Under the pieces are notes generated by a model that searched no databases, was not told the origin of the DNA, and saw nothing but the letters and a program-made list of their open reading frames with translations. Source: Octopus vulgaris (lineage: Eukaryota). Taken from it: 64,000 bases of DNA. Both the position numbers and the translations under genes were made by a program. The stretch is from the NCBI GenBank assembly GCA_951406725.2, contig OX597835.1, positions 34,410,001 to 34,474,000 on the forward strand. Reading direction: 5' to 3'. Positions 901-61,835 of this stretch are shown here, piece by piece; within the stretch, counting starts at the first letter, position 1, and each line of letters opens with the position of its first letter.

Positions 901-985
<85 letters not shown>

Positions 986-1171
986 AATAAAATATATGCA
1001 TATATATAAACATATATGTACGTACCTACCTCTACATGTACATATACACGCATATATGTGTACAGGACACCAAAAGGACGTCGAACACATAGAGAGACGA
1101 AAAACATAGACACAAACCAAGGAACAAGACAAGCAAAAAAAGGAGATACAGGACAATAAGCACAACGAAAA

Positions 1172-1250
1172 ATCCCCTTCTTCAGTCGCTAAAGTTTCAT
1201 CTACTAAACGTTTCGAAGGATAAAAGCGAGACGTATACTTCGAATGAAAA
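1172..1250 (-). ncRNA. Non-circularly permuted hammerhead-like motif, family A (best-preserved copy)
   Basis: Minus strand reads UUUUCAUUC..ACG-UC|UCGCU-uuu-AUCCUUC-GAAA-CGU..GAUGAAA..AGCGA-CUGAAGA-AGGGGAU. It has a GUC triplet, stem I UCGCU/AGCGA, stem III ACG/CGU and stem II AUCCUUC/AGGGGAU. Confidence 0.7.
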
Positions 1251-1558
1251 ATTCCTTCCTGCGAAAAGCAAATCAATTAAAAAACTGAGATCTTGTCGCA
1301 GAGGGGTAAAAAAAAGCAAGACGGTAACGACAGTACAAACATATAAACAGTAAAAAATATATATATAAACAGTGGAAAAATAAATATATAACAGTGAGAG
1401 ACAGGACAAGGAGAACAAGATAAGAAGGGCTGTTAACGCCAGACGAAAAAAGTATTGCAAACGCTGGATTATAGTGGACGACGAGAGAGGAAGATGTCGA
1501 CCAGTGGCCTTAGAAGGCAGGTGAGAAAAGACGGGATAGCAGTTACGACGGAAGTACG

Positions 1559-1621
<63 letters not shown>

Positions 1622-37871: not shown

Positions 37872-38051
37872 GGAGCTTCTACAGGACTAGAACTGTTTCA
37901 TTCAGATAGAATCTTCAGGAAGCCCTGAAGATTTCATCTGAATGAAACAGTTCTAGTCCTGTAGAAGCTCCTTCTATAAAATAAATTACTTTACTCTGCT
38001 ATGTATTGAGTACCTTATTTACCTTGGTTAACCCCGACTCAACCCGGGACC

Positions 38052-38584: not shown

Positions 38585-39036
38585 TCGAATATCCCGTCCG
38601 TGTTTTTTGTATCGTCTTCTAAATGTTTTACGTTCTTGTCCCAGTTTGTATTTTTCTACATATAATATATATATATTTCACCCTCTTTTACCCTCTTTGG
38701 CTTCCTTCCTCTCTATCTCTCTCTCTCTCTCACTCCTCCTCATCTCTCTCACAGCCAGGTCGACGAACTTCCTTTCCTTGGCGGCCTTCTCCAAGTAAAC
38801 ATGTTTCTTCTTGCGCTCGTGAAAAAAATTTTTTCCTCGTCTAGGCTTATAGGCCCTCATTAATTGTGTTCCTATTCTGTTTCTACCCCTTCTTGTACTG
38901 TATATTTTGTAATTGTATTTTTACTTTGTATTTGTTTTTAATTGTATTATTTTAACATCCTGTTTTTGTCACATTTTTTTTCCTTGTTTTTACCCCTCTG
39001 CAAAGGAATTTTATTTAATTCTTTCGCAGGAAGGAT

Positions 39037-39112
39037 TAGTTCGACGAGACGTGTTCTGTCCTCACCTTCGAAACACGCTGGAGTTGAACTAGGGACGGCT
39101 GATGAAGGGGAT
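39037..39112 (+). ncRNA. Non-circularly permuted hammerhead-like motif, family A
   Basis: UAGUUCGAC gaga CGUG-UU|CUGUCC uca CCUUC-GAAA-CACG cugga GUUGAACUA g GGACGG-CUGAUGA-AGGGG. Same strand order as 1172-1250 but with different, still complementary stems. Confidence 0.68.
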
Positions 39113-39404
39113 TTTTCCTTGTATAGTTGTCTTGTACTCTGTTTTTTCGTTGTTAAAGGAATGGTCCGTTCCATGCTGTTTTTACGTTTTTGTTTCTCGT
39201 TGAGTTCTACGTCTATTTGTGGTGTCCTGTACACACGTATATATAATTATATATGCATGTATATATACATGTAGATGTAGGTACGTACATATATGTTTGT
39301 ATGTATGCATATATTTTCTTTATTACACTATTGTATGACTGAGTGCCTTCGCGTCGATTCGATTCGATTCGTTTGGTTTCGTTTCGTTTCTTCTTCTCTA
39401 AGCT

Positions 39405-39507
<103 letters not shown>

Positions 39508-41543: not shown

Positions 41544-41940
41544 GAGTGAGCTGTGTATGCCATCAAAGTGACACGGGGGTAAAGTATTCGAAGCCCAGTA
41601 TAACCATCTTTGATAAGGGTACACCAGGCACATGCATCACAACCATATGTGCGCGACATGGTAATTTCATATCAAGATAAACAGCGCATAACCTTGCAGG
41701 TGGGGCTCAGTTAGGATTTTCTTAAGGTTGGGTAGCCCATCCCGCCCAAAAGATCCCTGAATATGGGTTGTTTAAGGTTGATGATATGCATGTATATATA
41801 CATGCATATATGGATGCAGGACATCCAAAAAAAACGCTGAACACAATGAGAAATGAAAACATAAAAACAAAAACATAGAAACGAACTCTTTTTCAAGCAA
41901 CGAAAAAAACAGAGAAACGAGACATACAACCTAAAAAAAA

Positions 41941-42016
41941 TCCCCCTTTTCAGATGTCACTGTTTCATCTATTCCGCTATTCAAAGGTAAGGACAAGACG
42001 CGACTTCGTTGAAACA
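41941..42016 (-). ncRNA. Degenerate permuted hammerhead-like motif, family A
   Basis: Minus strand: UGUUUCA..CGC-GUC|UUGUC..CCUUU-GAAU..AUGAAACA..GACA u CUGAAAA-GGGGG. Core is mutated, stems partly retained. Confidence 0.45.
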
Positions 42017-42855
42017 ATCTTTCCCGCAATGCAAATTAAATAAAATTTGGGATTTTTTGCGGAGGGTGAAAGTGGTAACAAGAACAAGACAGGGAGAGCA
42101 AAACAGTAAAAGCAAACGATGAGGGTTGTTAAGCCAAGACGATGGAAAATTATTCTGAACGTTTAAGGAGACGAGCTTATGAAGAGACAGGATAAGCCCG
42201 TTTAGTCTTTGTGAAGGTAGTAGTCGGATCAACTGGAACTCTCGTCGTCGTAACCGACGGAGTGCCGCTATCATGTATATATATATAAACAAATATATAT
42301 TTATATACATATACTTATATACATGCCACGTGCGCATGCGTTGCCTACGACTCCCAAGTAAGAGGAGGTCAGTTGAACATGTCATTTATTATGGACGCAA
42401 GTTTATGTGCATGCACATTCGCATACACTTCCATGCATGCACCTCTTACACGTAATCCTATACACGTATAGACAGACGTATATACGCACACGGATATATA
42501 TATATATATATACATACACACATATGCACATATATACATACACACATATGCACATATACACACATATGTACATACACACACATATATATAATTATGTGTG
42601 AACTCTGCCACAAACATGTCAGTGAATATAGATTCTATATGTTAAGAAATGTAAACGACATTGTATGATAGTAAATGTTGTTCCATGTCGTCACCGGATA
42701 TCCTGTTTGCTCCTAACGTTGAATAGCTTACGGAATTGTGCAATCAGAGAAAAAGAAATAAACGGGTTTAATATATTAACAATTCACTGACTACCGAGAG
42801 CTGACACCCACGTTTGTTGACTATGCACAAATACAAACATATACAGTTGTGTATA

Positions 42856-49099: not shown

Positions 49100-51137
49100 G
49101 ACAGACGTGCTGTTTTTTGCTCCGGCAAATGTCACGTGTTAACGTGAATTATTGAACATTTTACGGCAACAGGTAGGACATTTTGGATATTTTTGGAAGC
49201 ATAGTGAGGTTTATTGCTTGCCGTTAATACTTTTTTGGCATTAATGTTAATTAGTGTTAACACTTTTCTGCGCGTAATAAGCTTCACTTTGCTTCGGATG
49301 TATTTGTTCTGCCTGTTGGCGTATTTATTGTCTCACCTTTAGTGAGAATTGTGTATTTTGAAGAGGCATAGCCCCTCCTCAAAAATTAATTTGTTCGCTT
49401 GGATTTACCACGGAGAACCAATTGTGCTTGGATTTACCACGGAGAACCAAGTGTGCTGCAACTAGGAGTACCCTGTTTCGTGAGGATTACCAGTTGCCAT
49501 TATTTGAACTGTCTTCCTTCGTCCTTTTCTCTGTTCTGTCTTTCTGTTCTGTCATTGTATTTTTTTCTTATTGGACTTTGAACTTTTAGTTGAACTTTTT
49601 TTCAAAATCATGGCAACAAAAGAAACCACTGCTTTGGAATGGGAGGTTGTCCCACCCAAGCAGTGGATTGAAAGTCTTGAGAAAAGGACGGTGGTCCTAC
49701 GAACCTATTCTAGGTCGCGTGGAGCTATCGCCCTCTTCGACAGGAGCACCATAGAGAAAGAGTTGGGGGACCACCTACCAACGATAAAGTTTATTTCTCG
49801 GGGGAGTAAATTTGCAACGGTGTGGTTGCTGTTTGGTACCCCCGAGGAAGCTAGCAGATTTGCTAGCGAGCCACTGGAGGGAGAGGAAATTTTGTTCCTC
49901 CCCTCGTATTGTGGCAGAAAAGTAAAAAGAGCCTGGGTTTGTGGGCTGCCCCCGGGCACGGAGGCGGAATGGATCGAGAAGACCATCCGGCGAGGCCTGG
50001 GGGATAGCGGACCCAGGCTACTGAGTGTGAAAATGGCTCCCGCGGTCGCCTGGGAGGGGTCAAAGGCAACTTTGACCCTGTGGACACCGGTGGCCGTGGG
50101 AGAAATGAAATTCCCGGACTTCCTGAGAATGGCTGGGCACAGGTACCCGGTGATACTCGAGGGACGCCCCCCCCAAGTGTCACCTGTGCCTGAAGCCCGG
50201 ACATATCAAGAGGAATTGTCCCGGGGGCTGTGGTGGTGCCCCGGAGCATGAAGGGGAAAAGGCGCCCGCTGCCCCCTCATTGGAGGGGGAGACGGTGGAA
50301 GTCGTGGAGGAGGTTGCCTCCACGAAAAGAAAGAGACAGGCGAGCAACAATGGCTGCTCGCCAAAGAACGCTCAGGTGGCGGAGGGGGATAGCGATCCCC
50401 CGTGTCTGGTGACGGAGTCCCCTGGGTCAGCAGTCTCCCCCAAAAGAAGGAGGAGAAAAAGAAAGAAAGGTCGGGCGGTTGATATCCATGAGCCGCAGAC
50501 GTTGGCGGGAACTGTGCCGCCAACGAAAGAACTGAACGTATTGGTCCTCTTCTATAGAGGAGGAGAAATTGAAAAAAAATGATGGAAGAGTACCACAAGG
50601 GAGCTCCTTTAGCCTTCACACAGGACCCCGAATGGCCTCCGCAGATAGCTGTGGAGGCCGTGGCGTTCGACGTGACGCTTGGGCTAAAGGAGCTCAATGA
50701 AGATTATAGCTTGGTCCCGGGCGACGCGAACTCGGAACTTGATTACGTTCTGAGGGAGGCGTGTATGATGGTGGAGGGCGCGGGCACAAGCTATTTCGAG
50801 GACGATATGTAATTATTGAACTGTTAGTATTAATAATGGACTGCTAAGTCCAAAAATTGGAAAATTGAAAGAGGTTTAATACCTCGTTTTGCATTTTTAT
50901 TAATAATGGACTGCTAAGTCCAAAAATTGGAAAAAATTGTAAGAGGTTTAATACCTCGTTTTGTGTTTATCTTTAAAAAGAACAATGTTTTAGAGAAGCG
51001 AAAGTCGGCGGGCGCTTTTTGTCTTCTCCCATCCTTATCATCTGTCTTTCATTATCATTCACTTCATTAATGTCCTCGTCCAGCCCGCAAAGCTAACTTA
51101 ATCTGTGTACTGCCTTTATGGCAAATGTTTTGAAATA
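49100..51137 (+). mobile_element. ORF1-only L1/Tx1-like non-LTR element inserted in a tRNA-derived SINE head
   Basis: 5' UTR, gag-like ORF1 and 3' UTR ending in AATAAA (51134-51139). Imperfect TSD AAGTAGCT(T/AG)CTTACCA at 49084-49099 and 51138-51154. SINE sequence resumes exactly after the insertion. Confidence 0.78.
49610..50812 (+). pseudogene. Gag-like ORF1 with CCHC zinc knuckle, interrupted by homopolymer frameshifts
   Basis: MATKETTALEWEVV...RYPVILEGRPP, then after a one-base shift in the 8-C run KCHLCLKPGHIKRNC (C-x2-C-x4-H-x4-C, 50178-50219). Downstream basic stretch PKRRRRKRKK. GC-rich relative to flanks. Confidence 0.8.
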
Positions 51138-61038: not shown

Positions 61039-61835
61039 TTTAAGGCCGCAGCCCCCTATTACAACGAGGCCCTGGCCCGCAGTGGCTTTAAAGATAAGAT
61101 TACCTATACTAGTATAGCCCCACACCAACCCAGGAAAAATAGACGAAGACACATTAGCTGGTACAACCCCCCTTCAACCGTGAGGTCGCTACACCTGTAG
61201 CTAAAACCTTCTTCACTCTCCTACAGAAACACTTCCCCACCCAACATAAGTACTACACTATCCTAAATAAGAACACTATTAGACTCTCCTACTCTACCAC
61301 GCCCAATCTAGCCAGGAACCTAGCCAACAACAATGTGAAAAAACTTAACATATCTACTTTTTCCGAGGCCCATCCAACGTCCGATAGCAATTGCAACTGC
61401 CCTGATAAAACCACCTGCCCCCTCAACAACAACTGCCTACAGAGGGACCTAGTATATACATGCGAGGTAAGATCAGGCCCTGACGATAAAAGAAAATCCT
61501 ACATCGGAATGACGTCAAACAGCTTTAAGACCCGTTGGTACGCACACACACACTCGTTCCGGCGACAGGATAAATCCAACCAAACTACCCTCGCCGCCCA
61601 CATCTGGTACCTTAAAAGGAACTCCATCCCCTTCACGACCAAGTGGAAACTACTACAGAAGGCGCGCTCGTACACAGGAGGCCATACCTGCTGTGACCTC
61701 TGCATATCGGAGAGCCTAGAGATCTTGTTCGCCAAAGGCCCTCTCCTTAACAAAATCTCAGAACACTCTCCAAATTGCATGCATAAGAAGTATGCGAACT
61801 ACAAGAACTATAGACCTACCCGGCAACCAGATTGA
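61039..61835 (+). mobile_element. 5'-truncated Penelope-like retroelement: RT thumb/linker and GIY-YIG endonuclease (Nematis-like)
   Basis: FKAAAPYYNEALARSGF...RRHISWYNPP, then one frameshift in a C-run, then FNREV...LNKNTIRLSYS...CNCPDKTTCPLNNNCLQRDLVY...YIGMTSNSFKTRW...CDLCISE...LLNK. Confidence 0.88.

Follow-up and report, generated by a model that had tools for sequence, protein, structure and literature searches.

Does the repeat near the start of this stretch of Octopus vulgaris DNA encode a hammerhead ribozyme whose strands follow an order that circular permutation cannot produce and, if so, what would such a ribozyme do in an animal genome? The window analyzed here, i.e., the whole stretch, comprises 64,000 nucleotides of contig OX597835.1 (assembly GCA_951406725.2, positions 34,410,001 to 34,474,000). 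An earlier note, made from its letters, had proposed a hammerhead with the strand order C-B-A (cleavage site, GAAA, CUGANGA). This order has been named type SGC and is a non-circular permutation of which five examples were validated, with rates of 0.007-0.19 per minute and co-transcriptional cleavage (Eckert et al., 2023; PMC10085705). According to the accessible text of that paper, the non-circular permutations came from metatranscriptomes, and a single GCS candidate was the only one found in any known organism's genome. Essentially, this is the one paper on these RNAs, which are anonymous environmental molecules whose evolution and job are left open in that text. In the literature searched, with most subscription journals outside its coverage, the term type-SGC appeared in one paper only, one 2026 paper cited the SGC work merely in passing as far as its accessible text goes, and no animal genome was described as containing an SGC hammerhead.

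An SGC Hammerhead Motif in the Window

On the minus strand, the cleavage site (block S), GAAA (block G), and CUGANGA (block C) follow one another in this order from 5' to 3' (Table 1), and the core elements CUGANGA, GAAA, and NUH (H not being G) all adjoin their stems. Stem I is formed by 1229-1225 with 1190-1186 (five Watson-Crick pairs) and stem III by 1234-1231 with 1211-1208. The short linker that the earlier note had placed between stems I and II measures 6 nt in this copy and 3-6 nt over the alignment A2 described below, and the connector between stems III and I has 17 nt. A general descriptor for the SGC order gave two matches in the window, with H17 at 1230 (minus) and 39055 (plus), against none in 200 dinucleotide-shuffled windows. 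The core and its order are present here and absent from the shuffles, which confirms that the motif is real and bears out both the hammerhead reading and the C-B-A order. An Rfam scan of the whole window yielded no match, and the type I-III patterns and the published SGC patterns miss the family, as had been foreseen for standard searches.

The two further copies in which the earlier note had seen compensating stem changes fared differently. The copy at 39037 is intact, although its triplet is GUU and not GUC, whereas the homologous copy at 41941-42016 carries a catalytically broken core (G8 to A, A15.1 to U) and fails the SGC descriptor; the core is kept in most other copies of its subfamily.

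Table 1. Coordinates of the features described in the window
Feature	Position	Strand	Basis or remark
Type-SGC hammerhead motif with peripheral helices	1166..1260	-	Descriptor match and covariation
Block S: stem III strand, GUC (1232-1230), stem I strand	1225..1234	-	Predicted cut 1230/1229
Block G: stem II strand (1218-1215), GAAA (1214-1211), stem III strand (1211-1208)	1208..1218	-	
Block C: stem I strand (1190-1186), CUGAAGA (1185-1179), extra A (1178), stem II strand (1177-1174)	1174..1190	-	
Outer helix (P3b), past internal loop on stem III	1249-1244 with 1200-1195	-	Covarying
Possible enclosing helix (P0), weaker support	1260-1253 with ~1173-1166	-	85.6% of cells paired, without two-sided change
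5'-truncated copy, 587 bp, of ~834-bp non-coding unit	974..1560	-	(TA)n on both sides, family 3' end near 974
Second subfamily copy, 785-bp unit type	38684..39418	+	Intact SGC motif, H17 at 39055 (GUU)
Third, older subfamily copy	41789..42071	-	Motif with broken core; 5' limit approximate
C-terminal part of Penelope-type RT + GIY-YIG ORF	61158-61835	+	Also G000 loci L256-L259

The earlier note had left undecided whether this arrangement is among the known permutations. Its topology is that of type SGC and is thus already known, but the family, with the SGC order in a host genome, is not among the published reports as far as the accessible text of PMC10085705 goes. Compared with the HRIMA-1/SGC variants of that paper, a comparison made on three constructs, the family shares the block order, the short stem I-II linker (typically 3 nt in the published ribozymes), the pair G10.1-C11.1, the covariation of both stem I and stem III, and a single additional nucleotide separating A9 from G10.1. 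This nucleotide is A here and U in the constructs SGC-1, -2, and -3, as read off the published oligonucleotides and the pattern CUGAUGAUG. The published ribozymes come from metatranscriptomes, whereas the family described here has thousands of chromosomal copies, and it differs from them in an N7 that is often A, in the 17-nt connector, in the core CUGANGA-A-G, and in an invariant stem II of 4 bp with two G.U pairs. The published search patterns (CUGAUGAG or CUGAUGAUG, with a connector of <=15 nt), compared by eye, fail because of this core and this connector, and thus the family would not be filed in those families. A direct helix between stems I and II is needed in the published SGC ribozymes (PMC10085705), but no conserved one was seen by eye in A2. 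It seems to be replaced here by pairing of the 5' leader on both sides of block C; pairing before stem I (the outer helix) and after stem II (P0) could bridge the same two ends.

Covariation and Conservation of the Core

Alignment A2 contains 20 representatives, i.e., 19 of the 30 clusters obtained from 119 distinct motifs plus L088; the 11 rows left out were truncated, deleted, or degenerate (L052, L099, L160, L221, L073, L062, L054, L086, L084, L138, and L156). In A2, 86.9% of the cells are paired, against only 51-60% in slid registers, and changes on both sides were found at 5/6 pairs of stem I, 3/5 of stem III, and 7/7 of the outer helix. The covariation score was not reached by any of 500 shuffles. 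Since this shuffle ignores relatedness, the changes were also counted on a tree built from the flanks only, which gave 6 changes from one Watson-Crick pair to another in stem I, 4 in stem III, and 8 in the outer helix (some of these depending on how one subfamily group is aligned), i.e., 18 over the three helices, with none in stem II or P0. The covariation of stems I and III, previously claimed from three copies, thus holds across 20 subfamily representatives, and the predicted cut position and the outer helix also hold on the wider sample.

The catalytic core was followed in copies chosen in two ways. GAAA and CUGANGA are intact in 25 of the 30 copies picked by an anchor upstream of, and outside, the motif, and in these copies N7 varies (A/U), as does H17 (C/U/A), by eye. 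Among the 95 copies chosen on blocks G and C, 45 passed the full descriptor, which rejects G at H17, and their triplets are GUC (21), GUU (14), and GUA (10). The catalytic positions are kept too in a young subfamily whose copies are 98-100% identical.

Stem II and the Extra A

The earlier claim that all three stems are present stands for stems I and III and has to be qualified for stem II, which is weak and invariant and shows the pair G10.1-C11.1 only if an extra A is left unpaired. In the window copy, CUGAAGA is directly followed by one A and then GGGG. A stem II starting directly after CUGAAGA opens with an A.C mismatch, while leaving the A after A9 unpaired gives the canonical G10.1-C11.1 and four pairs, two of them G.U. 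The A10.1.C11.1 register, whose core-side position is unpaired in 19 of the 20 representatives, was set aside in favor of the extra-A register, in which stem II pairing is possible in 96% of the cells. Stem II never varies across subfamilies, hence its lack of covariation and of changes on the tree.

An extra A at this same core position, between A9 and G10.1, also occurs in the CChMVd (+) viroid hammerhead. That ribozyme is an ordinary circular permutation in a plant viroid, whereas the family described here is SGC; the precedent was not found in the literature searched for it.

The earlier note passed over the fact that stem II faces an inactive competitor, as well as the mobile-element context described below. 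As isolated duplexes, the active register has an energy of 0.0 kcal/mol, the A.C register -1.3 kcal/mol, and a GAAGG/CCUUC register, which would bury G8 and A9, -4.6 kcal/mol, the last being ~4.6 kcal/mol more stable than the active one. The upstream GAAGG is an equal competitor for CCUUC (-4.6 kcal/mol). Given the weak stem II and the competing register, cleavage is probably slow or partial. It is also observed that GAAGG lies on the minus strand both ahead of the motif (1260-1254) and within its catalytic strand (1181-1175) and that, in nearly all subfamilies, both copies are perfect complements of the invariant CCUUC, a duplication that is a possible folding switch.

Pseudoknot-free folding of seven sense-strand representatives was no better than that of shuffles (z from -0.71 to 1.03), and the start of stem I paired with the CGA of block G in five of the seven. 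In this nested folding, stem III together with the outer helix makes a local hairpin of blocks S and G.

The Repeat That Carries the Motif

The genome searched (2.8 Gb, 227 contigs) is rich in (TA)n and (CA)n. It contains 2628 + 2604 exact matches to the G+C-block pattern, against 0 for the reversed control, and 1552 + 1599 to the exact S+G pattern. The copy of the window is 99.3% identical over 587 bp to the unit of locus L002, and the 30 best genomic matches mostly have one 3' end in common, with (TA)n after it, and extend to different lengths on the 5' side. The 28 distinct tandem periods range from 785 to 898 bp, except for two, of which one contains an insertion and the other a deletion. 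Each unit has one SGC motif and a fixed 3' end ~235 nt downstream of block G, its GC content is 0.38-0.40, and the ribozyme strand is two-thirds pyrimidine. The longest ATG ORF has 62 aa in the subfamily of the window and 114-252 aa in three others. The unit is non-coding, as it lacks a credible ORF, and the one of up to 252 aa in another subfamily is low-complexity.

The units sit in (TA)n singly or as 2-4 tandems, with ragged 5' ends and head-to-head inversions. In 82 arrays of one chromosome, there were 67 with one anchored unit, 13 with two, one with three, and one with four. All the hallmarks of Penelope-type elements are therefore present: a fixed 3' end, 5' truncation, tandem or inverted copies, and microsatellite targets. 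The loci with head-to-head inverted copies are L073, L132, L197, L204, L004, and L046, several of their junctions falling inside the ribozyme; in L073 and L197, the junction falls on the stem I complement, as would be expected of a cDNA folding back on it.

Some further observations concern the unit. In most subfamilies, a conserved word that contains TTTACCCC is found ~75 nt upstream from block G (~1296-1284, minus strand, in the window; 1275 + 1203 matches). At L136:1200-2335, a tandem unit carries in its AT-rich 3' end an inserted tRNA-like SINE of ~300 bp, recognized by eye. Beyond this genome, at least 120 metagenome stretches, with flanks for 80, and 3 viral ones matched the G+C pattern; none of these 123 matches passed the SGC descriptor, and they thus look like chance. 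Sequencing runs labelled as two other organisms contain 0.37-0.49 of the words of the unit, which is only a lead.

The same helices and the same cut could also be formed between two RNA segments, block C pairing with the S+G hairpin of a different molecule or of the following unit in a tandem, which would make this a dimeric or CSG-order hammerhead instead of a monomeric SGC fold. Covariation is blind to whether pairing takes place in cis or in trans, and the local S+G hairpin leaves block C free. In the L145-type subfamily, moreover, the connector between stems III and I has only ~10 nt, mostly paired in A2, which looks tight for a monomer. The minimal hammerheads of Penelope elements and amphibians are dimeric or of the CSG order. 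The two-segment arrangement nevertheless leaves aside the fact that the short stem I-II linker and the extra core nucleotide match those of validated SGC ribozymes (PMC10085705), and that the great majority of the arrays have a single anchored unit. Axolotl retrozyme hammerheads do work far better as dimers (PMC7229834). We regard this arrangement as improbable but as the most serious competitor of the monomeric fold.

Relation to Retrozymes and Penelope-Like Elements

The animal non-LTR retrozymes are defined by type I hammerheads (PMC7229834; 10.64898/2026.07.22.740005). They consist of non-coding tandem units, give rise to RNA circles, and are described as probable derivatives of Penelope pseudo-LTRs (PMC7229834; 10.64898/2026.07.22.740005). 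The family described here resembles them (Cervera and de la Pena, 2020; Li et al., 2026) in being non-coding, with a GC content of 38-40%, in having one hammerhead per tandem unit, and in its thousands of copies dispersed through a genome that also has autonomous Penelope-like elements. Its unit of 785-898 bp exceeds the 150-450 bp given in the 2020 paper (PMC7229834) and falls inside the 51-972 bp of the 2026 preprint (10.64898/2026.07.22.740005). Circular RNAs are known for the animal retrozymes and putative for this family. As its block order is SGC and not type I, we consider it retrozyme-like in its working and not a canonical member. Type I hammerheads had been the rule for animal retrozymes, and this family departs from it.

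Penelope-like elements show 5' truncation, partial tandems, adjacent inverted copies, and a bias for (TA)n (Craig et al., 2021; 10.1101/2021.04.23.441226), all of which are common to the family, but the unit, unlike them, has no reverse transcriptase (RT) or endonuclease ORF. The genome holds a high-copy, young family with RT and GIY-YIG domains (at least 150 genomic matches at 95-100% identity, ORFs of up to 722 aa), and its ORF is preceded by a minimal type-I hammerhead of its own, ~150-200 nt upstream. We take this ORF to be Penelope-type from its motifs (YRDD, a GIY-YIG-like YIG, and a Cys linker); Pfam did not recognize it and returned one weak, unrelated match. This autonomous family is the candidate trans-acting enzyme; the other Penelope families in the genome are known only as fragments. 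Four long Penelope copies had no sequence in common with the unit beyond low-complexity similarity. A tblastn search of 305 loci with three Penelope-type queries detected no Penelope ORF joined to the unit and found fragments in five loci (L172, L178, L426, L221, and L014). (TA)n separates the fragments of L172 and L178 from the unit, and those of L426 and L221 are on the opposite strand. The fragments of L172 and L178 are probably independent insertions at shared targets; by their GIY-YIG and RT motifs, recognized by eye, L172:1965-2444 (-) and L178:1713-2246 (+) represent a second Penelope-type family beside copies of the element.

Insert 5' Ends at the Predicted Cut

The 5' ends of the inserts offer a way to look for traces of cleavage in the genome. 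Copies tend to end at the predicted cut, which suggests that the RNA is cleaved there. On the forward strand, genome-wide, (TA)4 junctions fall in the 11-nt window just 3' of the cut in 251 of ~2604 cases (9.6%), in the 11-nt window just 5' of the triplet in 29 of 1581 (1.8%), and at a site ~150 nt downstream in 5 of 707 (Fisher p = 2e-26 for 3' against 5' of the cut and 4e-21 against the downstream site); the denominators come from different patterns, and the ratios of ~5 and ~14 are thus approximate. The reverse-strand counts were left out because one locus was counted several times, and 18 forward matches further upstream (control, 3) were kept out of the test as they have no matched denominator.

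Two smaller samples agree. Among the same 95 copies chosen on blocks G and C, inspected by eye, 32 are truncated or inverted <=75 nt upstream, with 22 ends in the ~11 nt between the cut and block G and 10 in the next 65 nt (p = 4e-10). With an anchor ~150 nt downstream, the 82 arrays, an independent sample, gave 7 ends within the 11 nt 3' of the cut and 6 in the next 65 nt upstream (p = 0.002). On a scale in which 0 is the start of the block G strand and the cut lies at about -10, these arrays have 11 ends at +61 to +140, 10 at +21 to +60, 7 at +1 to +20, 7 at -10 to 0, 6 at -11 to -75, and 41 spread to -717, one of the 82 (L209) having been placed by eye. The pile-up lies mostly 5-10 nt inside the cut, and ends are also raised 20-60 nt further 3'. 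Several subfamilies have TA microhomology on both sides of the cut, and thus the drop across it is not obviously explained by microhomology. Most inserts read through the predicted site, so that many templates would have been uncut or religated. The pile-up is likely a footprint of cleavage.

It could instead come from an RT stalling at a stable fold. The conserved structure would then be dead or nearly dead as a ribozyme, or mainly in the GAAGG/CCUUC register, serving the Penelope RT as a signal for recognition or for stopping, and the ends would record stalling or template switching. The stability of the inactive register, invariant in all subfamilies, fits this explanation, as do the clustering of the ends inside the cut rather than at it and the inversions of L073 and L197, which use stem I complementarity at the junction; besides, of nine predicted Xenopus retrozymes, eight showed no cleavage in vitro (10.64898/2026.07.22.740005). 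It would, however, leave unexplained why the catalytic positions are kept while N7 and H17 vary and the stems co-vary, also in the young subfamily, and why the junction rate falls about five-fold right across the scissile bond. We consider it unlikely, slightly more so than pairing between two segments. That the motif is a set of chance hammerhead-like words in an ordinary repeat is hardly credible, as the missing Rfam match and a nested fold no better than random speak for it but the empty shuffled windows, the 18 Watson-Crick changes on the flank-only tree, and the end pile-up at the predicted site speak against it.

Proposed Function of the SGC Hammerhead

The reading that we favor, with a probability of about 0.7, is that the SGC hammerhead processes the RNA of a non-autonomous, retrozyme-like retroelement. 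The transcript would very probably fold into an SGC pseudoknot held by the 3-6 nt stem I-II linker and the outer helix. It would then, with good likelihood, cleave after NUH, so that the resulting RNAs start with the stem I strand. The RNA would be copied in trans by an RT/GIY-YIG protein of the Penelope type, beginning at the fixed 3' site, where a (TA)n target is available. On linear templates that have been cleaved, copying would come to an end at the cut, and the joint with the target would lie 0-10 nt inside it. Uncleaved monomers, or monomers religated into circles, would allow the RT to read through, yielding longer and tandem inserts, although the odds for this circle route are only about even.

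Taken together, these steps may describe the first chromosomally encoded non-circularly permuted ribozyme working in a living animal. It would cut the RNA of a retrozyme of 800-900 nt that Penelope enzymes mobilize, the cut being recorded genome-wide in the 5' ends of the inserts; its 5' leader would clamp both sides of the catalytic strand, and its invariant two-register stem II would be an on/off switch keeping some RNA uncut or circular for reverse transcription. It would have originated from a Penelope type-I hammerhead independently or by capture of a viroid-like RNA. To this combined picture we would give one chance in two.

Thousands of copies, many subfamilies, and close relatives within one animal lineage provide the SGC order with a host, a likely job, and a substitution history, making its origin and function testable, and they indicate that neither the type I-III patterns nor the published SGC ones detect ribozymes that are abundant in genomes. 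What hammerheads do in Penelope-type elements is called unclear in 10.1101/2021.04.23.441226, and the pile-up of insert ends gives a sequence-level handle on this question that is applicable to other families.

Other Repeats in the Window

The window contains other retroelement-like features. At 49508-50703, a 247-aa ORF (plus strand) is followed by a CCHC-like stretch; by eye it resembles a gag-like ORF1 of a retroelement, and Pfam gave no match. Minimal type-I hammerhead-like motifs (CUGANGA, a short stem II, and GAAAC) occur as inverted pairs at 37925(+)/37918(-), 20419(+)/19900(-), and 37575(+)/37488(-). Such inverted pairs are typical of Penelope pseudo-LTR inversions, and the motifs of the first two pairs are similar to that of the autonomous family. 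Finally, several repeats have a conserved CUGANGA without a plain GAAA partner in the standard order: 15491(+), 38569(+), and 63372(+); 51853(-) and 60750(+); 222(+); and, all on the minus strand, 26563, 28285, 41295, and 47567 together with 26386, 28109, 41119, and 47391. These may be other hammerhead variants or permutations.
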